Assembly: GCA_037381445.1 (NCBI GenBank)
Contig: JARRQT010000035.1
Coordinates: forward strand, 1 to 23,836
Source of the DNA: Calditrichia bacterium
GTDB taxonomy: Bacteria; Calditrichota; Calditrichia; RBG-13-44-9
Direction of reading: 5' to 3'
Length of the DNA: 23,836 bases
Under the pieces are notes generated by a model. That model was not told the DNA's origin. It saw nothing but the letters and a program-made list of their open reading frames with translations, and ran no database searches. The translations under genes and the position numbers were made by a program. Of this stretch, positions 2,583 through 18,017 are shown in pieces; position 1 is the first letter of the stretch, and each line of letters starts with the position of its first letter.

Positions 2583-5500
2583 ATGAAAATAAGTGATTGG
2601 TCGCTTTACCATAAAGCAAGTGTTTTTGTTTTGCTGGTCATCGTAATCATCGCAGGATTGGTCTCATACCGCAATCTTCCCGTAGAATCCTTCCCGCAGA
2701 TTAAACAGCCGGTGGTAATTGTGGCTGTTCCGTATATCGGGGTCTCCCCTTCCGACATGGAAACGTTGGTGGCTCAGCCGATTGAGAATAAACTAAAAGA
2801 AATTTCCAAGATCAAGAAAATGACCTCACTGAGTTCTGAAGGCTACACAAATGTCACGGTGGAATTCGAATCGGATATGGATATTGATGAAGCAGTCCGG
2901 AAGGTGCGCGAGAAAGTTGACCAGGCAAAACCTGATTTGCCGGATGATGTGGAAGAGCCATTTGTGCAGGAAATCAATTTCGAGAATATCCCCATCATGC
3001 TGGTCAGCATTGTGGGGCAGCATTCCCTGGTCCGACTCAAGAAAATTGCGGAGGATTTGCAGGATGAATTTGAGCAGGTTCCCGGTGTGCTGGATGTGAA
3101 AATATCCGGAGGACTGGAGAGGGAGGTCAAGGTCAACCTGAATCCTGCGCGCCTGAGATATTATAATCTGGGGACGAGTGATGTCATTTCGGCCATCCAG
3201 CAGGAAAATACCACCATACCGGGCGGCGCGGTGGAAAGCGGTAACTTGAAATATACGGTCCGCGTTCCCGGTGAATTTGATAATATTGAAGAGCTGAAAA
3301 ATGTGGTCGTTAAAACCATCAATGGCTATCCCATTTATGTGCACGACCTGGCGGATGTTCAGTTTGGCTACAAGGAGCAGACCAGTTACTCGCGACTCGA
3401 CAAACAGTCCAGCGTCACGCTTTCGATCCAAAAAAGAAGCGGCGAAAATATCATCCGGATTTCAGATGATATTAAAAATATTCTTGAGAAGGAGAAAGCA
3501 AAATTCCCTGCCAGGACAGACTACATCATTTTAGGGGATCAGTCGAAGGAAATCCGTTCCATGGTGAACGATCTGGAAAACAACATCATCGCAGGACTGC
3601 TGCTGGTGATTGCGGTTCTGTACTTTTTCATGGGCGCCCGCAACGGTTTTTTGGTGGGTATCGCCATTCCCCTCTCCATGCTGCTCTCCTTCATCGTACT
3701 CAGTTTTATGGGCTACACGCTCAATATGATTGTTCTGTTTAGCCTTATCCTTGCGCTGGGAATGCTGGTGGATAATGCAATTGTCATTATCGAGAACATA
3801 TACCGTCATCACGAGGAAGGCAAACCACTGTTCCAGGCAGCAAAAGAAGCCTCCGGCGAAGTGGGAATTGCTGTAGCCACCTCGACTTTGACAACCCTGT
3901 TCGCCTTTTCTCCGCTGGTCCTGTGGCCGGGAATTGTCGGGGAATTTATGAAATACCTGCCCATCACGCTTATTATCACGCTGACCGCTTCTCTTTTCGT
4001 GGCTTTTGTGTTCAATCCGGTAATTGCATCCTCATTTCTGCGGCTGGATGAAAAAATGAGCCGCCTGCCGGGAGACCGGCTACTGCGCTACCTTATTGTC
4101 CATTATGAATCATCACTGAGATGGGCCATCAGCCACCGCAAGATCACCCTTGCGCTCACTTTTGCAGGATATATTGGTATGTTCATCTTCTATGGTATGT
4201 TTAATCATGGTGTGGAATTTTTCCCGGATATGGAACCCAGCCAGGCATGGATCAAAATAGAGGCGCCGGTGGGAACCCGCCTGGAATCTTCGGACGACAT
4301 TGTGAAGGAGATCGAGAAGCGGATTGAAAACACACCGGATATGGAACACTTTGTTACTGAAGTGGGAAATGTCTCTACTGATTTCGATTTCGGCATGGGG
4401 GGCGGCGTTCCGAACAAATCACAGGTAACACTCGATTTTCTGGAACGTCCCGACCGTTCACAAAATTCTCTGAAAACCCTGGAAGAGGTAAAAAATAACG
4501 TCCAGGGAATTGCCGGCGCCCGGGTGGATGTTTCCAAGCCTCAGTCCGGTCCGCCAACCGGAAGTGCGGTGGAAATTCAGGTCAAAGGAGAGGATTTCGG
4601 TGTTCTGGAAAATCTTTCCAATCAAATTCAGAGAAGAATAAAAGATGTTCCCGGACTGACGGAACTGCGTGATAATTATGAAAAAGGCAGACCTGAACTG
4701 CGCATCAGAATCGATCGCGAGAAAGCGGCGCTGCTGGGATTGAACACTGCGCAGATTGCCGGCACCATCCGGACAGCCGTTAACGGAACCGCGGCATCGG
4801 AATACAGGGTTGGGCAGGACGAATACGATATCACCGTCAGATTCAGTCAGGATTTCCGCCGAAGCTACACCGATCTTCTGAACCTGACAATCTTTCATGA
4901 AGGTAAACACATTCCGCTGGCCAATATCGCAACCGTGGATTTTTCCTCCGGGCTCAGCAGCATCAATCATGTGGATGGTGATCGTGTGGTTATCATCACT
5001 GCCGACGCCTTCGGCAGGAGTTCCGCAGAGGTACTGGCGGATGTAAAACAGCGGCTTGCCGGTTTTCAGACGCCGGAAGGCTATTCCCTCCTGTATGCCG
5101 GGCAGGATACGGAACAACAAGCCGCTTCCGACTTCCTGAGCAGGGCATTTATGATTGCATTGCTGCTCATCTTTTTTGTGCTGGTAACCCAGTTCAATTC
5201 CGTTACCCTCCCCTTTGTGATAATGATCTCCGTGCTGCTCTCCTTTTTTGGGGTATTCTTCGGACTGCTGGTGACCTTCAGACCCTTCGGCATCATCATG
5301 ACCGGGATCGGCATCATTTCGCTGGCCGGCGTAGTGGTGAACAATGCCATCGTGCTCATCGATTACATTCAGCAGCTCCGCAAGCAGGGAATGGATAAAC
5401 TGGAAGCAATTATTCAGGGAGGGAAAACCCGCCTCCGTCCGGTCGTTTTAACGGCGGTGACGACTATCTTAGGTCTGATTCCGCTCACCACCGGTATCAA

Positions 5501-5744
5501 TATCGATTTTATCGGTTTATTCAAAGGCAACCTGTCGAATTTCATTGAATTTGGCGCAGAAAGCTCACAGTGGTGGAGCAATATGGGCGTAGCAGTTATC
5601 TTCGGGCTGCTGTTTTCCACGGCCTTGACGCTGATTATCGTTCCGGTCCTGTATTATATGCTGAGCGATGTCGTCGCTGTGACGTTGGAAAAACTCGGCT
5701 GGCAGAAAGGCGATCAAATCTCGGAAGCTGTGGAAGAAGCCTGA
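2583..5744 (+). CDS. RND efflux transporter permease subunit (AcrB/AcrD/AcrF family)
   Basis: 1053 aa with RND layout (TM1, large loop, TM cluster, repeated). Motifs: LPVESFP, GMLVDNAIV (TM4), GVVVNNAIVLID (TM10), RLRPVVLT (TM11). Confidence 0.96.
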   Translation: MKISDWSLYHKASVFVLLVIVIIAGLVSYRNLPVESFPQIKQPVVIVAVPYIGVSPSDMETLVAQPIENKLKEISKIKKMTSLSSEGYTNVTVEFESDMDIDEAVRKVREKVDQAKPDLPDDVEEPFVQEINFENIPIMLVSIVGQHSLVRLKKIAEDLQDEFEQVPGVLDVKISGGLEREVKVNLNPARLRYYNLGTSDVISAIQQENTTIPGGAVESGNLKYTVRVPGEFDNIEELKNVVVKTINGYPIYVHDLADVQFGYKEQTSYSRLDKQSSVTLSIQKRSGENIIRISDDIKNILEKEKAKFPARTDYIILGDQSKEIRSMVNDLENNIIAGLLLVIAVLYFFMGARNGFLVGIAIPLSMLLSFIVLSFMGYTLNMIVLFSLILALGMLVDNAIVIIENIYRHHEEGKPLFQAAKEASGEVGIAVATSTLTTLFAFSPLVLWPGIVGEFMKYLPITLIITLTASLFVAFVFNPVIASSFLRLDEKMSRLPGDRLLRYLIVHYESSLRWAISHRKITLALTFAGYIGMFIFYGMFNHGVEFFPDMEPSQAWIKIEAPVGTRLESSDDIVKEIEKRIENTPDMEHFVTEVGNVSTDFDFGMGGGVPNKSQVTLDFLERPDRSQNSLKTLEEVKNNVQGIAGARVDVSKPQSGPPTGSAVEIQVKGEDFGVLENLSNQIQRRIKDVPGLTELRDNYEKGRPELRIRIDREKAALLGLNTAQIAGTIRTAVNGTAASEYRVGQDEYDITVRFSQDFRRSYTDLLNLTIFHEGKHIPLANIATVDFSSGLSSINHVDGDRVVIITADAFGRSSAEVLADVKQRLAGFQTPEGYSLLYAGQDTEQQAASDFLSRAFMIALLLIFFVLVTQFNSVTLPFVIMISVLLSFFGVFFGLLVTFRPFGIIMTGIGIISLAGVVVNNAIVLIDYIQQLRKQGMDKLEAIIQGGKTRLRPVVLTAVTTILGLIPLTTGINIDFIGLFKGNLSNFIEFGAESSQWWSNMGVAVIFGLLFSTALTLIIVPVLYYMLSDVVAVTLEKLGWQKGDQISEAVEEA

Positions 5745-5794
5745 TTTATTTAAGAGGGATGGAGACTATCTCTGAACATATTTCGGAATTAACA

Positions 5795-5825
5795 GAGGAG
5801 ACCTTTTGCGTTAGAAGGTCTCTTC
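5795..5825. terminator. Hairpin between the convergent RND permease and alsT genes; probable (bidirectional) intrinsic terminator
   Basis: GAGGAGACCTTTT-gcgtt-AGAAGGTCTCTTC forms a 13-bp stem with two G-U pairs on the + strand. It sits between two converging stop codons, but the U-tracts are weak. Confidence 0.6.
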
Positions 5826-5840
5826 TTCATTCCATAAGAA

Positions 5841-7196
5841 TTAATATTTTCCATCAAAATAGCTTTTGGTTTCGCTGACGATAACCGGCGTCAGGGCCAG
5901 CAGACCAACCAGGTTGGGGAATGCCATCAAGCCGTTGAAGACATCGGCCAGCGCCCATACCAGATCCAGTTTCAGAATGGCCCCAACCCCCACGAATATC
6001 ACAAAAATAGCCCGGTATGGCCTGACCGCGGCTTCTCCCAAAAGATATTCTATGGATTTCTCCCCGTAATAACTCCAGCCTAAAATTGTTGAATAGGCAA
6101 ACAAAATCAGGCCTACGGCCACGATAATATTGCCCCACTGACCCGGCAGGCCATGGGAAAAAGCGAAGGATGTCAGCTCGGCGCCGTTTTTTCCGCTGTC
6201 CCAGGTGCCGGTGAGAATCAGCACCAGCCCGGTCATCGAGCACACAATGATGGTATCGATGAAGGTCTGAGTCATGGAAACCAGCGCCTGGGTCACGGGA
6301 TGTTTTGTCACCGCTGCAGCCGCAGCAATCGGCGCACTTCCCAAACCGGATTCATTGGAAAACACGCCGCGGGCCACCCCCATTCGAATGGTCAGCATCA
6401 CCGTTGCTCCCAGAAATCCGCCGGTAGCGGCGGTGGGTGTAAAGGCCTCTTTAAATATCAATTCAAATGCCTCAGGCAGCAGATTTATTTTAAGAATGAT
6501 GATAAGCAAAGCGCCCGCCATGTAAAAAACAATCATCACCGGAACCAGTATCCCCGTTACCCGCCCGATGCTTTTAATTCCTCCCAGAATCACCAGACCG
6601 GTGGCGACCATCAAAACCAGGCCCGTGACGTAGAGGGGAATATGAAAAGTCGCCTGCACCGCATCGGCAACGGAATTGGACTGCACCATATTCCCGATTC
6701 CGAATGCCGCCACAGAAGCAAAAATTGCGAAAAGCGCTCCCATCCACCGCCAGCCCAATCCGTTGGAAATATAGTACATGGGACCACCACTCATGGTCCC
6801 GTATTTGTCCTTGATCCGGAATTTTACGGCGAGGACGGCTTCGGCATATTTTGTGGCCATTCCCACCAGACCGGTAATCCACATCCAGAACAGGGCTCCC
6901 GGCCCTCCGGCAGCGATGGCAGTCGCTACGCCGGCAATGTTTCCCGTACCCACCGTGGCCGATAAAGCGGTCATCAGCGCCTGGAAATGGGAGATGTCAC
7001 CGGGCTCATCCCCTTCCTCCTTGCGCTTGATCAGGGCCAGATACAGGGCATGAAATAACTTTCTGAACTGCAGCCCGCGAAGAATGATCGTGATCAATAA
7101 ACCGGTTCCCACCAGCAAAATCATCAACGGCAGCCCCCATATCCAGGCACTCAATTCTTTCACCAGGATTTCAAAGGATTTTAGAAAACCATCCAT
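5841..7196 (-). CDS. alsT: Sodium:alanine/glycine symporter (AGCS family, AlsT/AgcS)
   Basis: 451 aa polytopic membrane protein carrying the AGCS signatures [43 protein letters not shown] and NGLMAFPNL. Confidence 0.95.
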
Positions 7197-7248
7197 GTTG
7201 TCCCTTCGCTGTTTTGTGTTTGGAATTTCGGTTCTTTATCGGGAATGC

Positions 7249-7264
7249 GTATTGAAATCAATAC
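7249..7264. promoter_or_regulatory. Inverted repeat upstream of alsT; candidate operator
   Basis: Perfect 7-2-7 palindrome GTATTGA-aa-TCAATAC about 53 bp upstream of the alsT start. It overlaps a TTGATT hexamer on the - strand. Confidence 0.35.
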
Positions 7265-7323
7265 TTTAGAGGATTGATTATTAAAACGCAGGCATAAAAT
7301 TTTATTTGATATTTCACAAAATA

Positions 7324-8163
7324 TCAAAAGCTTTTGGAGAAGCGTTCCACTTCCGCCAGAACCGCTCCTGCCACACATTTGTGCCAGAATCCGAAATGCG
7401 CGTAACCTTCATTTGGCGGACCTTCGTAAATCAATGCCAGGGGCTGCCTCGCTGACACCAGGCGGCCGCTGTGGAAAATTCCCCATAACTGCCCGGTATA
7501 GGGCGAACGGATTTCAATCCCCTCCACACTGCCCAGGCTGTCATGATGCTGTATCTGCTGTCCGATATCGCGGGAAGAGACAAACAGGCCGTCCAGGGGA
7601 GAAAGCACTTCATTGAACGGCTTTTTGAAGAGGTGAATGTCAAAATCCGGTCCGAACTGCGGTTTTGATAGATAGACATCGCCGGTCCGGTAGCTAAGAC
7701 CGGCATCGACCGCCACATGGCAATCGGTTCCTGCAATATGGTTAGGATGAAGTCCGATGACGAAATCTGCGCTTTCCAGAGAAATTCCACTCCCGGCTCC
7801 CGGCAGTGTCCTGATGAAAACGGCAGGCTGCAAAATTTCGAGAAAAGAAGGCAGCTCGCCGGTCAAAAAAATCGGAATATCCCTGTTTTGAATATGAAAT
7901 GAAACGGCCTCCCGCCAGCGGGCATCAAAATTCCTGGAAGGGGCTCTATCTAAATCCTCTTCCGTTATCAATAACCCCCGGATATCATCAATCTGCTTCC
8001 GGCCGGTGAATGCGGCTTCCGCAAAGCAAATAGAACGCCGCAGATACAATTCCTGCGGCTCTAAAGCTATCGCTACCGGAATAAATGATTTCCTCAAATA
8101 ATATGCGATTGCAGAACCAAGCTCCCCTCCACCCAGAACCAATGCCGGAGCCTTTTTACTCAT
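7324..8163 (-). CDS. yqeB: Divergent YqeB-like protein (EF2563 family, selenium-dependent molybdenum hydroxylase system)
   Basis: 279 aa, collinear with YqeB as I recall the family: N-terminal VLGGGELGSAIA, LRRSICFAEA, VIGLHPNHIAGTDCHVAV, a biotinyl/lipoyl-like C-terminal domain (SPLDG...IG...SPYTGQLWG) and terminal VAGAVL. Several conserved motifs are missing. The start overlaps the upstream stop (ATGA). Confidence 0.75.
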   Translation of the reverse strand: MSKKAPALVLGGGELGSAIAYYLRKSFIPVAIALEPQELYLRRSICFAEAAFTGRKQIDDIRGLLITEEDLDRAPSRNFDARWREAVSFHIQNRDIPIFLTGELPSFLEILQPAVFIRTLPGAGSGISLESADFVIGLHPNHIAGTDCHVAVDAGLSYRTGDVYLSKPQFGPDFDIHLFKKPFNEVLSPLDGLFVSSRDIGQQIQHHDSLGSVEGIEIRSPYTGQLWGIFHSGRLVSARQPLALIYEGPPNEGYAHFGFWHKCVAGAVLAEVERFSKSF

Positions 8164-8918
8164 CTAACAGATACCTTTTTTATCAGATTATTTCTTAAAT
8201 TGGCAAAATATATGTTTTCAATTTTGTGTAAAAAAAGGTCGCGTGCCAGATTAATGGACCGGTTTTCCAGAAGCGGATTGTTCACGTCCGTGAAAACCAG
8301 TATCCCCGGCCACTGCTGCGTGAAAAGCGATAATGCGCCCTGCTCAGCGTCAATCAAATACCGGACGATGAGCCGCTGATCAAAAACGCGGGAGGATGCG
8401 AAATCAGGGAAACTTTTCAGGAACTCTTCCGGATTTTCCGCAACTTCTCGGTCCAGTTCCCGGTCAATATAATCGATCTGAAAACAGTATATCAACTGAT
8501 CCAAAAAATCCATTTTGGCAAGTCTGGCGATGTGTTTGTGGGAAAATACACTCACTTTTTCCGGCGAGCCCACCACCAGCAGCAGGTAATCGACCTTCCC
8601 CAAATTGATGATTTTTGAAGCAATTTGAGCCGTTATGCCGGAGACGAAATGATCTTTGACGCCCCGACCGGCATAGACGACAGGAGTTTTTTCCAGTTCT
8701 TTTTCAATTTTTTGAAGAAGCTCTTCATCGTTTTCACTGTACACAATCTGGCCCGAGGTGGGCAGCAAATCCTTTCCCAATTGGCCAATAACAACTTTTT
8801 TGCCGCTTCGGCCAAATTCTTCAGCGAATTCATTCACAAGGTAATTGCGTCCTTTTCCTCCGGTAAATCCGATAATCTTTGCCTGAGGATTTAATAACAG
8901 TTGTTGCGTAATCGACAT
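8160..8918 (-). CDS. Divergent YqeC-like protein (degenerate P-loop; selenium/molybdenum hydroxylase accessory family)
   Basis: 252 aa. IIGFTGGKGRNYLVNEFAEEFGRSGKKVVI aligns by eye with the YqeC N-terminus (VGAGGKTT...LAxEL...GKKVLVTTTT), and VDYLLLVVGS sits where D.xLVEADG normally lies. Adjacency to the YqeB-like gene supports the call. Confidence 0.6.
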   Translation of the reverse strand: MSITQQLLLNPQAKIIGFTGGKGRNYLVNEFAEEFGRSGKKVVIGQLGKDLLPTSGQIVYSENDEELLQKIEKELEKTPVVYAGRGVKDHFVSGITAQIASKIINLGKVDYLLLVVGSPEKVSVFSHKHIARLAKMDFLDQLIYCFQIDYIDRELDREVAENPEEFLKSFPDFASSRVFDQRLIVRYLIDAEQGALSLFTQQWPGILVFTDVNNPLLENRSINLARDLFLHKIENIYFANLRNNLIKKVSVR

Positions 8919-8922
8919 CTCC

Positions 8923-9348
8923 CTAACCTATACTTTCCGGAACAATTTTGAATCCCATTTTGCTGTAAGCCATATTAGAAGTCATGATAAAACGAATATT
9001 TCGGCGGTTCATCAGCACCACATTTGCGCAGTCGAACAGCGTTAACTGAGAATCGGGGAATTTTTTAAAAAGCTTGATAGCATCCCGCTGGGTACGACGG
9101 CCGATCCATAAAATGTGCAGATGGGCCCCGGACCAGGCCTCCTCAATAATATCATAAAAGCGGTTGGCGCGGACTGCCCCATGCTTCAGTTTCAGCCGGG
9201 AAATCACATTTCCCACGATAATATTGGTTGTATAAAATCCGTGTCCGTCATCCAAAAAACTCTGCATCTGCTCCTTCATTATTTGGTGCAGCGGATCATC
9301 ACTGCCCGCTATGGCATACCATGCGACTTCATCAACGAAAATTTTCAT
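8923..9348 (-). CDS. vapC: PIN-domain protein, VapC-like (COG2402 type), with partly degenerate active site
   Basis: 141 aa with IFVD..AWYA....DDPLH, YTTN, LTLFDC and terminal MGF matching COG2402 PIN proteins. It has a GGAG RBS and lies 11 bp downstream of an AbrB-type gene. Confidence 0.85.
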   Translation of the reverse strand: MKIFVDEVAWYAIAGSDDPLHQIMKEQMQSFLDDGHGFYTTNIIVGNVISRLKLKHGAVRANRFYDIIEEAWSGAHLHILWIGRRTQRDAIKLFKKFPDSQLTLFDCANVVLMNRRNIRFIMTSNMAYSKMGFKIVPESIG

Positions 9349-9359
9349 CTTCTGCTCTC

Positions 9360-9554
9360 CTATTCGTTTTCAAACTTCATCAGTTTATAGAGCGGATTTT
9401 CGCTGATGAGAATCTCCAGCCGCCGGGTTTTGATTTTTTTCACGGTGACTTCCAGCTTGTCACCGGGCCTCAAATCAAGCTTTTCGCGGACTTCTGCAGG
9501 TATTTCGATGCTGTTCTTGGGACCTATTTCGGCATTAAAAGTCGAAAACTTCAT
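9360..9554 (-). CDS. AbrB/MazE/SpoVT-family DNA-binding protein (VapB-like antitoxin)
   Basis: About 64 aa with the swapped-hairpin signature IEIPAEVREKLDLRPGDKLEV, directly upstream of the PIN gene. ATG at 9554 is preferred over GTG at 9557 on RBS (GGTGA) spacing. Confidence 0.88.
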   Translation of the reverse strand: MKFSTFNAEIGPKNSIEIPAEVREKLDLRPGDKLEVTVKKIKTRRLEILISENPLYKLMKFENE

Positions 9555-9574
9555 CACATCACCGTTTTTATTTT

Positions 9575-9616
9575 AAATTAGCAATATGCCCTTTCAGATA
9601 CAACAAATTTGTTATA
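9575..9616 (-). promoter_or_regulatory. Sigma70-type promoter of the abrB-PIN-yqeC-yqeB unit with overlapping palindromic operator
   Basis: On the - strand, TTGTAT (9603-9598), a 17 bp spacer, then TAATTT (9580-9575) preceded by TGn. The palindrome TAcAACAAA|TTTGTTaTA (9599-9616, perfect core 9602-9613) overlaps the -35 element. Confidence 0.6.
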
Positions 9617-9806
9617 AGCCCCTGCTGAAGCAAAGAGATACAAATACAAAGCCGTTCCGAAATAATAATCCGTTGTAAAAATCCATCGATTGCCGGAATA
9701 AAATTCCTTTCTCCGCTGCCACGATCTTTGCTAAAGAGCTGGCAGAATGGCGATCAAAAATTCAGATTTCTTCACAGAATGTGAGGCGGTTGATCCCCCG
9801 CTGAGC

Positions 9807-10736
9807 TCAGGCCACAGCGTGTTTATTTTTGAAGAACTCCACCGTTTGTTTGAGTCCTTCGTCAAGGGTTACGCCCGGTTTCCAGCCCAGCTCGCTGTAA
9901 ATCAGGTCGCTGGTCAAAACACTGCGTTTTTGTTCGCCCGGTTTGGCTGGCCCATGCTTTTCCGGCAGATCTTTGCCCGTATATTTCACAATGGTCCTGA
10001 ACAATTCATTCACATCTGTCTCAACGCCGGTGCCGATATTATAGATCTTGTTTGTGCCGGAATCCAGTGCCAGTTCATTGGCCTTTACCACATCACCCAC
10101 AAAAACATAATCGCGGGTCTGCAATCCATCGCCGTTGATAACGGTCTGCTGACCTTCCAGAATCCTTTCCGAGAATATTGCCACAACGCCGGCTTCTCCG
10201 TGAGGATTCTGCCGGGGTCCGTAAATATTGGCATATCTTAAAATCGTGTAATTAAACCCGTAGGTCTGATTATAAAAGTAGAGGTATTTTTCGGTGGTTA
10301 GTTTTGTGATTCCGTAAGGCGACAAAGGACGCAGGGGATGTGCTTCATCCGCCGGAAAATAATCCTGTTCACCGTATATCGCACCGCCGGTGGATGCGAA
10401 AATAAACTTTTTAACATCATATTTTATACAATTCTGCAGCAGGTTTAAGCCGCCGATAACATTGACGTTCGCATCATAAACCGGATCCGCAACGGATTTG
10501 CGAACATCCATCTGCGCGGCATGGTGATTCACGATGTTTGGCCGCTCCTTTTCAAAAATGGCTGCAAGCCCTTTATCCCTGATATCCGCCTCATAAAATT
10601 TTGCAGCGGAGGGAATATTCTCCCGCTGTCCCGTAATCAGGTTATCTACAATGACCACTTCATGCCCCAATTCCAGATAACGATCGGCAACATTTGAACC
10701 GATAAATCCCGCACCGCCAGTAATCAGTATTTTCAT
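9807..10736 (-). CDS. NAD-dependent NDP-sugar epimerase/dehydratase (extended SDR, UDP-glucose 4-epimerase-like)
   Basis: 309 aa with TGGAGFIG Rossmann motif, HHAAQ, ASTGGAIYG, catalytic YGITK (YxxxK), RYANIYGPRQ and GDGLQTRDYVFV. Confidence 0.93.
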   Translation of the reverse strand: MKILITGGAGFIGSNVADRYLELGHEVVIVDNLITGQRENIPSAAKFYEADIRDKGLAAIFEKERPNIVNHHAAQMDVRKSVADPVYDANVNVIGGLNLLQNCIKYDVKKFIFASTGGAIYGEQDYFPADEAHPLRPLSPYGITKLTTEKYLYFYNQTYGFNYTILRYANIYGPRQNPHGEAGVVAIFSERILEGQQTVINGDGLQTRDYVFVGDVVKANELALDSGTNKIYNIGTGVETDVNELFRTIVKYTGKDLPEKHGPAKPGEQKRSVLTSDLIYSELGWKPGVTLDEGLKQTVEFFKNKHAVA

Positions 10737-10784
10737 TCTTCAATCCTCTTTTTTCCTTGTCATTCATACGACTTTTTACACAGC

Positions 10785-10813
10785 AAAATATAGCCTGCCA
10801 ATTCCTTATTCAA
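10785..10813 (-). promoter_or_regulatory. Candidate sigma70 promoter for the epimerase gene
   Basis: On the - strand, TTGAAT (10813-10808), a 17 bp spacer, then TATTTT (10790-10785), within the 123 bp purD-epimerase gap. Confidence 0.35.
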
Positions 10814-10859
10814 GTGACGGATTTCGCTTATGAGAAACAGCTAAAATAAATATATAGAG

Positions 10860-12134
10860 TCAGGAAATCATCTTCCAGCCGCGCTCGGCAATATCTGTGC
10901 GGTAATGCATCCCTTCGAAGCGTATTTTTTTGATGTTCCGGTATACCTTGTCCACGGCGCTTTTCAGTTCATGATGCAAAGCAACCACGCCCAAAACCCT
11001 TCCGCCGTTCGTGACAACATGATGGTCCATCCTCCGGGTTCCTGCGTGGAAGACCACAACATCCTCTTCCACTTCATTCAGACCGGTAATCCCTTTCCCT
11101 TTCTGATACGCGCCGGGATATCCCCCCGAAGCCGCAATGACGCAGACCGCATATTCTTTTCTAAATTTCACTGTCTGTCGGCCTAGCTTCTGCTGCACGG
11201 CAGCAAGCAAAAGCTCCATCAGATCCGTATCCAGGAGCGGCAGGACAACCTGGGTTTCGGGGTCCCCAAAGCGACAGTTGAACTCCACCACCTTCGGACC
11301 TTTATTGGTGATCATCAGACCGCAGTATAGAACACCTTTATAGGTAATCCCTTCAAATTTGAGTCCTTTCAGTACCGGCTCAATGATTTCGGTTATGGCC
11401 CGTTCATACATGGTTTTCGTCAGCACCGGGGTCGGCGCGTAGCTTCCCATTCCGCCGGTATTTCTTCCGAGGTCCCCGTCCAGCGCTCTTTTGAAATCCT
11501 GCGCGGGCGAGAGCACGGCATAATCCTCGCCGTCGGTGATAACGAGCAGACTGGCTTCCTGCCCCTGCAAATATTCCTCGATGACCACACGATTGCCGGC
11601 TTCGGAAAACACCTTCTCCACCATCATCTGCTCCAGCATCTCTTTTGCTTCATCTTTATTTTCGCAGATCGCAACCCCTTTCCCGGCTGCCAGGCCGTCG
11701 GCTTTTACCACAATTTTCCCGTCCTCCAGACTATTTATATAGGTTACTGCTTTTTCGAAGCTTGTAAAATCGGCATAGGTCGCGGTAGGGATTCCGTATT
11801 TCTGCATCAGATTTTTAGCGAAAATTTTACTGCCCTCAATTTGGGCCCCTTTCTGGCCGGGACCAAATACAGCACGTCCGCGGGCTTCCAGAAAATCCAC
11901 GATGCCATCCACCAGTGGCTGCTCCGGACCAACCACTGTAAAATCAATATTCTGTTTTTCGATATAGGCGTCGATCTCCTCGAATTTATCCAGCGGTATT
12001 TCGGTGCATTCCGCAATTTGCTCGATCCCGGCATTGCCCGGAATACAATAAATCTTGTCCACTTTGGAGGATTGTTTGAGTTTCCACACAATAGCATGTT
12101 CGCGTCCGCCGCTTCCTAAAACCAGAACTTCCAT
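10860..12134 (-). CDS. purD: Phosphoribosylamine--glycine ligase (GAR synthetase)
   Basis: 424 aa with LGSGGREHA, VVGPEQPL, KADGLAAGKGV, NTGGMGSYAP, EFNCRFGDPETQV, GGYPG and YRTDI. Confidence 0.98.
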   Translation of the reverse strand: MEVLVLGSGGREHAIVWKLKQSSKVDKIYCIPGNAGIEQIAECTEIPLDKFEEIDAYIEKQNIDFTVVGPEQPLVDGIVDFLEARGRAVFGPGQKGAQIEGSKIFAKNLMQKYGIPTATYADFTSFEKAVTYINSLEDGKIVVKADGLAAGKGVAICENKDEAKEMLEQMMVEKVFSEAGNRVVIEEYLQGQEASLLVITDGEDYAVLSPAQDFKRALDGDLGRNTGGMGSYAPTPVLTKTMYERAITEIIEPVLKGLKFEGITYKGVLYCGLMITNKGPKVVEFNCRFGDPETQVVLPLLDTDLMELLLAAVQQKLGRQTVKFRKEYAVCVIAASGGYPGAYQKGKGITGLNEVEEDVVVFHAGTRRMDHHVVTNGGRVLGVVALHHELKSAVDKVYRNIKKIRFEGMHYRTDIAERGWKMIS

Positions 12135-15839: not shown

Positions 15840-15922
15840 AAACGGTAATCTGTGAAAGTCTCGATTCTTCCGTTTTTCCGGAATTTCGCATTGTGTTATA
15901 CTTTCAAAAACGAGTAAAGATT

Positions 15923-16699
15923 ATGAACAAGAAAGAATTTGACGTTATTTTAAAAAACCGCCAGGACCAGTTGCTTAAACTGGTGACGAAAAGCTTCTTC
16001 AAAGAGCTGGTGAATTACGGCATCGATAGCAGCGATATCGTGACAGTTTCCATGAATCTGCTCGATCATGTGACAAAAAAAGAAAAGAAATCAAACAATG
16101 AAAACGGTTTTTATCACCACCTCTTCACGCTGAAATCCGTAAAAGATTTTTGGGACACTACTAACACACTAACCATTGAGAAGGTATCAGTTTCTCCCCT
16201 GACGCCCGAGGGCATACCGCAGATTGTGCGGTGGCTGCGGAATAATGAAATAACGCACACATTTATAGATTTCTTACCCAAATCGCAATCTGCGCTGGAT
16301 ACCTATTTTTTCGGGGACCCATTGCGGGCCTATTTTGAGATCCATTTTGAGAATGAGTTTGTGGGAATTATCGGCGCTGAAAATATCGATGAACCATGTA
16401 AAAAACTGGAAATGAAGAAATTTGTCGGCGCGCCCGGTTTTAGCGGCAAGGGAATCGGCAAGCGGGCCACCTTCCTTTTCCTGTATCATTCATTTATGAT
16501 TCGAGAATTCAACAAAGTTTATATTCATTCCATGGATACAAACATCCGAAACATCAATATCAACAGCAAATTCGGATTTGAACTGGAAGGCGTCTTTTTT
16601 CAGGAAGCATGCAAAAATGAAAGATTTTATGATGTGGTCCGCATGGGATTGCTTCGCCGGCAATGGCTGAAAATATTTAACGCCGAGACAATTAAGTAA
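15923..16699 (+). CDS. GNAT-family N-acetyltransferase (RimJ/RimL/PseH-like) with an extra N-terminal helical domain
   Basis: The C-terminal ~170 aa has acetyl-CoA motif A (FSGKGIGK) plus NIRNININSKFGFELEG and YDVVRMGLL. ATG at 15923 is preferred over the track's GTG at 15893. Confidence 0.85.
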   Translation: MNKKEFDVILKNRQDQLLKLVTKSFFKELVNYGIDSSDIVTVSMNLLDHVTKKEKKSNNENGFYHHLFTLKSVKDFWDTTNTLTIEKVSVSPLTPEGIPQIVRWLRNNEITHTFIDFLPKSQSALDTYFFGDPLRAYFEIHFENEFVGIIGAENIDEPCKKLEMKKFVGAPGFSGKGIGKRATFLFLYHSFMIREFNKVYIHSMDTNIRNININSKFGFELEGVFFQEACKNERFYDVVRMGLLRRQWLKIFNAETIK

Positions 16700-16775: not shown

Positions 16776-18017
16776 CTATATTTGAACTTTCAACCGGCGC
16801 AGTACATCCATGGCGACTTCCGGTTTGTTGGTCAGAATGCCGTCGATGCCTTCCTGAATGATCTCATACATATCCTGAGGATTGTCCACCGTCCAGTAAA
16901 TAACACAGCGGATTTGTCCCTCCGGATTAAACTCGCAATTGGTGAGCTGCCCCCACTGCTGAAAATTTTCCGCGATCTGTTTGACGGCAGTTTTATGGGG
17001 ACATCCCAGAATAAATTCCCACCCGGGAGCGTCCGGATTTTTCAGGATTTCATATAATTTTCCGGCAAAGACAGACAGCGCACCGGTTTCCTCCAGCAAC
17101 AAATTTTCCTCAATTTTAAGATCGAGAAAAAACAGGATATGCGAATTGCTATGGATCTCCAGATTATTCAGGATTTCTTTCAGCAGCGGGGGATGCACAA
17201 AGCGCTTCCGCGGATGACGGTAGGCAAAAAGCCGTTGCACTTCCGGAAAAACGAGTTTTAGCGCGTTGAGTTGCTGCCGGGCATCCAAAAGCTTCCAGTT
17301 TGAATATGTACCTTGGACTTCATCGACTATCGACCGCCACTGGTGAACACCGTCTGCAAATTCAATTTCGGGAGAAACCAGCGGGTACGGCAGCCGCTCA
17401 GCCAGGTTACGCATGGGCGTAACAAACGGATCGGGATCATGCAGAACGACAATTTCATGGTCCGCGGACATACACAGGTCCATTTCCAGCGCATTCGCTC
17501 CCAGCTCAATCGCCCGTGAAAAGCTGTCCGCACTATTCTCGGGGAATTCATGCGGCGCACCGCGATGACCAAAAATAAAAAGGGGCCTGAACAGTATGAG
17601 GAAGGTCAGCGGAGCAGCTTCGGAACCCAGCGATTGATTGCGGATTCCATGAAAAAAACCGGCCTCGCCGTGGTCCGCTTTCGTCTCCAGGCTGCTCCAG
17701 GTGATAAGCGGCACCGGATATCGAGCGAACCGGGCAGGGATTTTATGATTCTCATCCGGCGAATAAAGAAGGCCGTCCCTCAGATCCAGATTGCGCTTCA
17801 GAAAACCGACCCTGAAGAATATATCGCTTTCCCGCTGAAGCGGGACGTCCTGAAAAGCAAACAGGCCCGAATCGTCACAAAGCCTGCTACGTGCCAGTAC
17901 ATCAAAATTGACATCCCGGTTAATCGACCGGCAAATCTGCACTCCAATTCCGTTCCTGATATAATCCCGGGCATTCCTATGATGATTATAATAGGAAAAC
18001 TTTAAAAAGGCTTTCAA
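16776..18017 (-). CDS. Glycerophosphodiester phosphodiesterase (GDPD) family protein with ~145 aa N-terminal extension
   Basis: IFGHRGA..PENS, ALEMD, VVLHD, FLDLK and YWTVD...GIDGILTNKP are GDPD motifs. The TTG start is 12 bp after the S8 protease stop and its position is uncertain. Confidence 0.82.
   Translation of the reverse strand: MKAFLKFSYYNHHRNARDYIRNGIGVQICRSINRDVNFDVLARSRLCDDSGLFAFQDVPLQRESDIFFRVGFLKRNLDLRDGLLYSPDENHKIPARFARYPVPLITWSSLETKADHGEAGFFHGIRNQSLGSEAAPLTFLILFRPLFIFGHRGAPHEFPENSADSFSRAIELGANALEMDLCMSADHEIVVLHDPDPFVTPMRNLAERLPYPLVSPEIEFADGVHQWRSIVDEVQGTYSNWKLLDARQQLNALKLVFPEVQRLFAYRHPRKRFVHPPLLKEILNNLEIHSNSHILFFLDLKIEENLLLEETGALSVFAGKLYEILKNPDAPGWEFILGCPHKTAVKQIAENFQQWGQLTNCEFNPEGQIRCVIYWTVDNPQDMYEIIQEGIDGILTNKPEVAMDVLRRLKVQI

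Follow-up and report, generated by a model that had tools for sequence, protein, structure and literature searches.

A phylum-wide operon of Calditrichota links an apparently disarmed AbrB-PIN pair to divergent YqeC-like and YqeB-like genes

We examined a four-gene operon in a 23,836-nucleotide stretch of DNA from a Calditrichia bacterium (positions 1 to 23,836 of contig JARRQT010000035.1, assembly GCA_037381445.1; hereafter, the window). Its first gene, abrB, encodes an antitoxin-like DNA-binding protein. A gene for a PIN-domain protein follows, and then come homologs of yqeC and yqeB. The four open reading frames (ORFs) that a preliminary description had reported are all present on the minus strand (Table 1), with the spacing that it gave: there is an 11-bp gap between abrB and the PIN gene, a 4-bp gap between the PIN gene and the yqeC-like gene, and a 4-bp overlap (ATGA) between the yqeC-like and yqeB-like genes. 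No Rfam family matched positions 5500-11000 of the window. The preliminary description also proposed that hallmark residues were lost while the frames stayed intact. Our analysis supports this, and the operon is conserved under purifying selection. By the tests that we ran, the operon is neither a canonical VapBC system nor a canonical selenium-cofactor locus.

Table 1. Features of the operon and its surroundings, in window coordinates.
Feature	Position	Strand	Remarks
abrB (AbrB/SpoVT-type DNA-binding protein, antitoxin-like)	9360-9557	minus	GTG start; in-frame ATG at 9554
PIN gene (VapC20/VapC26-like, 141 aa)	8923-9348	minus	fold, profile, homologs
yqeC-like gene (252 aa)	8160-8918	minus	TM 0.86 to YqeC; orthologs
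yqeB-like gene (279 aa)	7324-8163	minus	TIGR03309 69.8 bits, cut-off 220
Sodium:alanine symporter family transporter	5841-7196	minus	PF01235; frequent downstream neighbour of the operon
Housekeeping-type promoter, TTGTAT-17 bp-TAATTT	9575..9603	minus	conserved in same-order genomes
12-bp perfect palindrome over the -35 box	9602..9613		present in the window, not conserved
T-tract/A-tract running from the -10 box across the probable transcription start; candidate AbrB operator	9565..9577	minus	orthologous promoters

We surveyed 86 Calditrichota genomes, 53 of them high-quality. The PIN protein has an ortholog in 75 of the 86 genomes and in 51 of the 53 high-quality ones. (This is the stricter count; a looser tally of 41/41 contains a weak paralog match and was set aside.) The yqeB-like gene is found in 71 genomes and the yqeC-like gene in 57, and the operon genes are essentially single copy. 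We mapped 79 loci from 78 genomes. Eight genomes were cut by contig ends, and 70 complete loci were left. All four genes are present in the same order at 44 of these, and abrB and the PIN gene are present at 69. The yqeC-like gene is absent from 17 loci that keep abrB-PIN-yqeB, and the yqeB-like gene is absent from six that keep abrB-PIN-yqeC (one of the six has a split yqeC-like gene). Two loci have abrB-PIN only and one has the yqeB-like gene only; no complete locus has the yqeC-yqeB pair without abrB-PIN. (Related genomes are not independent, so these counts show inheritance, not statistical enrichment.) The abrB-PIN pair is the core of the operon, and the other two genes have been lost separately. 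An obligatory four-part complex is not supported by these loci, as the yqeC-like gene is missing from 20 of the 70 and the yqeB-like gene from eight. At one locus (L183, in the 97% complete genome G069), the yqeB-like gene lies directly after an eIF2B-like gene; abrB, the PIN gene and the yqeC-like gene are missing there, and the search of this genome gave no PIN ortholog.

The trees of all four proteins track the host families, with label changes at the minimum or one above it. (We used a quick tree for PIN, and FastTree as well.) Named database homologs are mostly from Calditrichia. Single KSB1 and Caldisericaceae labels are attached to proteins that cluster with Calditrichota members, in a search that was not run genome by genome outside the phylum. 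A metagenome scan with an outlying PIN protein as the query gave two loci, and both have this four-gene order. A search of plasmids gave only five distant PIN proteins (25-28% identity). We conclude that the operon is real, ancient, phylum-wide, single-copy and vertically inherited in Calditrichota.

Toxin-antitoxin (TA) pairs are usually patchy and mobile (stated in PMC10127717). The preliminary description had raised an extended TA or defence role. In such a multi-gene anti-phage or addiction system, the YqeB/C-like proteins would detect infection and then set the PIN effector free. The architecture, TA-like with extra genes, would suit this, but such a role is hard to square with an operon that is fixed, single-copy and vertically inherited. 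The conserved order, the host-congruent trees, the housekeeping neighbours and the incomplete active site of PIN (see below) also argue against it, and none of 10 proteins matched the PADLOC 2.0 models at E 0.01. We consider a defence system highly improbable.

We then estimated the ratio of nonsynonymous to synonymous substitution rates (dN/dS) for pairs of orthologs with dS<1. (Pairs with dS above 1 were set aside as saturated.) The ratio was 0-0.18 for AbrB (12 pairs), 0-0.12 for PIN (8 pairs), 0.04-0.24 for the YqeC-like protein (5 pairs), and 0.08-0.19 for the YqeB-like protein (8 pairs). For the source genome's own pairs, synonymous sites are saturated and the proportion of nonsynonymous differences (pN) is 0.18-0.47. 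Between orders, conservation is highest for AbrB (42%), versus 26% for PIN, 23% for YqeB and 16% for YqeC. Another explanation is that the operon is a decaying chance juxtaposition. The YqeC-like protein does diverge fast, with an apparent dN/dS of up to 0.85 in near-saturated pairs (which we do not rely on), and its gene is split in genome G037. But the frames are intact across eight families, dN/dS is low in the unsaturated pairs, and new invariant motifs have appeared. The preliminary description had asked whether the linkage might be unique to this genome, with dN/dS near 1; instead, the linkage is phylum-wide and dN/dS is well below 1. Decay is scarcely conceivable.

The PIN protein from the window has no match in Pfam or NCBIfam, but its homologs carry PF01850, and a profile built from 30 sequences matches VapC20. 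Its structure model has a mean predicted local distance difference test (pLDDT) score of 94 and is similar to VapC20 (template modelling (TM) score 0.84) and to entry 5x3t (0.80), which is named as VapC26 in PMC5737657. Relative to VapC20, the window's protein keeps Asp6 and Asp106 and has asparagine at positions 47 and 125. None of the 72 PIN orthologs has the full four-acid active site, whereas it is complete in 121 of the 130 closest PIN (VapC-like) representatives outside the ortholog group. Three acids are kept in 24 orthologs, two in 47 and one in 1. Which acid is lost differs by lineage: the fourth is missing throughout the source order (0/28 keep it), and the third, mostly replaced by histidine, is missing throughout the other orders (0/44). 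Asp6 is kept in 71/72 orthologs, Asp or Glu at position 106 in 28/28 from the source order, and Asp125 in 43/44 from the other orders. Thr or Ser is kept at positions 40 and 123. The family also has a motif of its own. Trp81 is invariant and is followed by Arg or Lys at positions 84 and 85 in all 72 orthologs (W81-x-x-R84-R85 in the window), while W-x-x-R/K-R/K occurs in just 4 of the 130 other PINs. The orthologs are basic, with a median net charge of +4 versus -2 for the other PINs. (The W-x-x-R/K-R/K motif is also present in three outlying PINs without a taxon label, P0131, P0132 and P0158, whose acidic residues are fewer still.) According to a review (PMC5499597), PIN nucleases need at least four acids. 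Judging from these residues, the PIN protein has likely lost part of its nuclease active site and been disarmed.

AbrB scores above the cut-offs of TIGR01439 (40.8 bits; cut-off 28.3) and PF04014. It is 64-65 amino acids long and ends soon after a helix with an invariant N-P-L. (In an alignment of 64 sequences, the invariant residues are Pro20, Gly32, Asn54, Pro55 and Leu56.) In VapBC26, the C-terminal helix of the antitoxin covers the active site (PMC5737657). We compared AbrB to the antitoxins of five VapC-like pairs, which are paralogous and come from related genomes. In these controls, tails of 27-34 residues run from a D-P-x helix (K-R-L in one case) via glycine to a D-x-Y motif, which is present in 5/5. 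The tail of AbrB past N-P-L is 9-20 amino acids, and D-x-Y is found in 0/73 operon proteins and in 0/120 database hits. The C-terminal segment of AbrB is net basic (median +5). We infer that AbrB has kept the docking helix and lost the segment that would block the active site. Because the tetrad is absent from 72/72 PINs and the D-x-Y tail from 73/73 AbrBs, the toxin-like and antitoxin-like halves look as if they were disarmed together.

If so, AbrB and the PIN protein may be a domesticated, non-toxic regulator made of a DNA-binding protein and a pseudo-nuclease, to which the YqeC-like and YqeB-like proteins would be accessories that are predicted to be non-catalytic. This is the explanation that we tentatively favour. 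The disarmed state is its best-supported inference, and the link to YqeB and YqeC is its weakest part.

Several observations weigh against this domesticated regulator. First, some PIN proteins are less eroded than others: three orthologs retain the first three acids, 24/72 retain three of the four, and position 7 is glutamate in 18/28 source-order proteins, which leaves room for an alternative metal site. In VapC1 of Haemophilus influenzae, the fourth acid that is used lies at a shifted position (PMC4229260). Second, the tail comparison involves five control pairs only, whose antitoxins have N-terminal domains of a different type from AbrB; four of their PINs have the full tetrad and one PIN ORF is truncated. 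Third, the yqeC-like and yqeB-like genes were each lost independently several times and are not obligatory. Finally, the T/A tract at the operon's promoter, which is our candidate operator (see below), is found upstream of cutA in just 1/40 cases in other orders, so autoregulation is not evident there, and abrB has its own promoter in only 1/45 cases in those orders.

Some of these points could mean that PIN is an active ribonuclease with a remodelled metal site. It might be a conditional toxin or a narrow housekeeping enzyme of RNA processing that AbrB checks or positions. The retention of Asp6, of Asp or Glu at 106 or Asp125, and of Thr or Ser at 40 and 123 would be expected of such an enzyme, as would the fact that the PIN gene is almost never found without abrB; and the flexibility of the VapC1 active site is published (PMC4229260). 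But two or fewer acids remain in 48/72 orthologs and four in none, which falls short of the requirement given in the review, and the antitoxin has no distal tail and a basic C-terminal segment. We think that an active nuclease is unlikely.

We next consider the other two proteins. Both match the YqeB/YqeC profiles, as expected from the preliminary description, though with scores below the cut-offs. The window's YqeC-like protein matches PF19842 only (E 0.015; 16 bits versus a cut-off of 27.6) and does not match TIGR03172. Its Atlas structure model is nevertheless similar to YqeC, with the TM-score given in Table 1. Among its orthologs, one is over the PF19842 cut-off, and two from family f4 score 43 and 54 bits versus the 73 required by TIGR03172. 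The P-loop-like motif is eroded (GGKGRN in the window). At the canonical G-x-G-G-K-T, 28% of 53 orthologs have the lysine and 9% have the threonine; the window has neither. A new motif, Glu218-Asn219, is conserved.

The YqeB-like protein does not reach the TIGR03309 cut-off in any of the 86 genomes. Its structure model (pLDDT 93) has a Rossmann-like domain with a biotinyl-carrier-like barrel inserted at about residues 181-248. The barrel resembles biotin carboxyl carrier proteins (Z 11.3; root-mean-square deviation 0.9 over 64 residues), and the fold search found no single solved structure that covers the whole model.

For comparison, we gathered 80 canonical-type loci with one over-cut-off query and used 60/70 YqeB and 41 YqeC sequences, which were not scored individually. 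The window keeps 4/26 canonical polar invariants in YqeB and 1/11 in YqeC, and it keeps 22/46 and 4/12, respectively, of the invariants that are non-polar or Gly/Pro. These counts call for caution: the canonical sequences vary less among themselves (YqeB mean identity 53%), and an alignment at 14-26% identity is liable to error. Across Calditrichota, the mean retention of the canonical YqeB polar invariants is 18%. Within 3 kb of the canonical-type yqeB genes, the profiles of the operon's own AbrB and PIN families were matched at 0/80 loci.

Canonical YqeB is linked to selD and hydroxylase loci (PMC2276186, published in 2008), and yqeB is needed for the use of purines in Clostridioides difficile (PMC11448449). 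The Discussion of the latter paper describes the biochemistry of canonical YqeB and YqeC as unknown. Might the operon's proteins evolve fast but still work as maturases of selenium-dependent molybdenum hydroxylases, with the upstream pair being incidental or their regulator? They are the sole yqeB and yqeC homologs found in Calditrichota genomes; in particular, no further homolog of either was found in the source genome (91.85% complete). As the preliminary description noted, the window lacks selD, xanthine dehydrogenase (XDH)-family subunits and XdhC. But the source genome carries selD, five XDH-family subunits and XdhC outside the window. selD is found in 81/86 genomes, which offers little contrast; it was not found in genome G082 (98% complete), which keeps the yqeB-like gene. 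XDH-family subunits are found in 73/86. Also, yqeC can be spared more readily than yqeB in Calditrichota, a difference that is seen in C. difficile too (PMC11448449).

Yet the low TIGR03309 scores and the loss of most polar invariants do not suit a maturase. Moreover, PF02738 and XdhC both went unmatched in 13 genomes, and the yqeB-like gene is kept in 11 of these (the yqeC-like gene is kept in four). Seven of the 11 genomes are 94-99% complete, and these come from three families. In genomes with no hydroxylase found, the yqeB-like gene is still constrained (dN/dS 0.19-0.29 for three pairs). No molybdenum hydroxylase genes were seen among the operon's annotated neighbours (70 selected ORFs). 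The retention of the yqeB-like gene in 11/13 genomes where no hydroxylase was found argues against selenium-hydroxylase maturation, so this role is unlikely for the yqeB-like genes of Calditrichota; that the two genes encode working maturases, with the upstream pair incidental or regulatory, strikes us as very unlikely. (Many Calditrichota have two forms of selD, an approximately 740-aa frame that is likely a fusion and a form with an in-frame TGA. In the source genome, we found only the long-frame form, at C191:5001-5927.)

At the operon's promoter, the pattern TTG-N20-TAnnTT lies 48-59 bp upstream in 21/27 same-order genomes, versus a mean of 0.34 and a maximum of 3 in shuffled sequences, though we wrote the pattern after viewing the same-order upstream sequences. 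Its spacing is also the genome-wide peak (212/2039 upstream regions versus 43-90 at other spacings). (This promoter signal, with its sharp spacing peak, is seen across the source genome, and its -10 box leans to TAWWTT.) The promoter that the preliminary description reported is therefore conserved. The palindrome that it placed over the -35 box is present, but its sequence is not conserved in the 27 other upstream regions, which does not support it as an operator. A candidate operator is the T/A tract at the likely start site, which is found in 19/21 orthologous promoters versus 19/200 promoter-like sites genome-wide.

In families f4-f8, the operon is preceded, at hardly any distance, by cutA and an eIF2B-family gene (L094-L110, L147-L168). 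In the source genome, the cutA/eIF2B-like pair is on a different contig (C100, about 23262-24315). The eIF2B-family protein scores far below the cut-offs for MtnA and ribose-bisphosphate isomerase, and its closest structures are of the eIF2B alpha type. This protein, too, may bind a ligand without catalysing a reaction.

This context bears on another explanation, which is that the yqeC/yqeB-like genes serve functions separate from that of the disarmed AbrB-PIN pair and only share an ancestral transcript with it. The pair would be the core, and the other two would have non-catalytic jobs of their own. The partial loci (abrB-PIN-yqeB at 17, abrB-PIN-yqeC at six, abrB-PIN at two and the yqeB-like gene alone at one of the 70) are as this would predict, and in other orders the string is embedded among housekeeping genes. 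On the other hand, the gene order and the near-zero spacing have outlasted the change in upstream context between orders, the same kind of erosion affects all four proteins, and a yqeC-like gene that is gone from the operon was not found elsewhere in the genome. Where a partner gene was lost, we saw no clear signature of residue relaxation in PIN, AbrB, the YqeB-like protein or the YqeC-like protein, in a comparison with few conserved columns, 4-8 lineages and little power. We regard separate functions as somewhat unlikely.

How might the domesticated regulator work? AbrB dimers would bind DNA, and their candidate operator is the T/A tract at the start site. The PIN protein might still dock on the invariant N-P-L helix of AbrB and act as a co-repressor. 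(An inactive mutant of VapC1 still forms a promoter-binding complex, according to PMC4229260, which cites earlier work.) The basic W-x-x-R-R face of PIN could bind RNA but leave it intact, so that repression would be coupled to the state of RNA or of the ribosome. The least certain steps are that the YqeC-like and YqeB-like proteins would be optional modulators of the regulator that bind ligands or proteins, and that these modulators are possibly tied to amino-acid uptake through the downstream symporter. In a more specific version, the ancestor of Calditrichota made a core regulator, able to bind RNA or ribosomes but not to cut, out of a toxin of the sarcin-ricin-loop type and its antitoxin, and it added two catalytically dead proteins of selenium-cofactor maturation as sensing subunits. 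The product would be a pseudo-enzyme signalling module, present throughout the phylum, that controls amino-acid uptake. We view this version as doubtful.

The symporter gene is next on the same strand at 38/79 loci; at 31 there is none, 9 loci are too short, and at 1 it is inverted. In the window, it has its own promoter-like site. The gap before it is 1-5 bp in four genomes, and in genome G006 a more distant copy of the symporter is inverted at the same place. Elsewhere in the window, positions 15893-16699 encode a GNAT-domain protein whose N-terminal extension, roughly 100 residues long, has no annotation. This ORF adjoins a glycerophosphodiesterase-like ORF (16776-18017) that has no family match in its 5' third.

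How does the operon compare to known systems? VapBC pairs of the VapC20/VapC26 group, which cut the sarcin-ricin loop, also have an antitoxin-like gene directly upstream of a gene for a PIN fold. The operon differs in its incomplete tetrad (72/72), its short AbrB tail, its W-x-x-R-R motif, its single-copy vertical inheritance across a phylum, and its extra co-transcribed genes. Compared to canonical YqeB (TIGR03309) and YqeC (TIGR03172 and PF19842), the operon's proteins are homologous and full length, the YqeC fold is kept, and yqeC and yqeB are adjacent; but they mostly score below the cut-offs, they have lost most polar invariants, and their genes are not beside selD or hydroxylase genes and are kept where hydroxylases are not found. 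(PMC2276186 mentions lower-scoring homologs but does not describe them.) Two other TA modules, which serve as precedents for domestication, are reported to be unusually conserved, and their authors propose a regulatory or non-canonical role: GndRX of Legionella, a RES-Xre-like pair that is reported to deplete NAD (PMC12457610), and VapB14 of Sulfolobales, which still neutralises its toxin (PMC10127717). In contrast, both halves of the operon's pair appear to be disarmed across a phylum, and they are joined by two eroded homologs of cofactor-maturation proteins. Inactive PINs of the Utp23 type have the same fold, a reduced acidic site and a proposed RNA-binding role, but Utp23 is a eukaryotic ribosome-assembly factor without an antitoxin-like partner (PMC5499597). 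In a literature search that covered mostly titles and the openings of abstracts, we found no prior description of the four-gene operon.

For annotation, the operon's genes should not be called an active VapC toxin or taken as evidence of the selenium-cofactor trait. Eroded YqeB and YqeC proteins that are kept without hydroxylases mark, by contrast, the residues that are likely important in the canonical proteins. A pair that is found in 51/53 good genomes, with matched loss of the toxin's acids and the antitoxin's distal tail, would be an unusually clean case of natural domestication, and the operon makes it testable what TA modules do once the killing stops.

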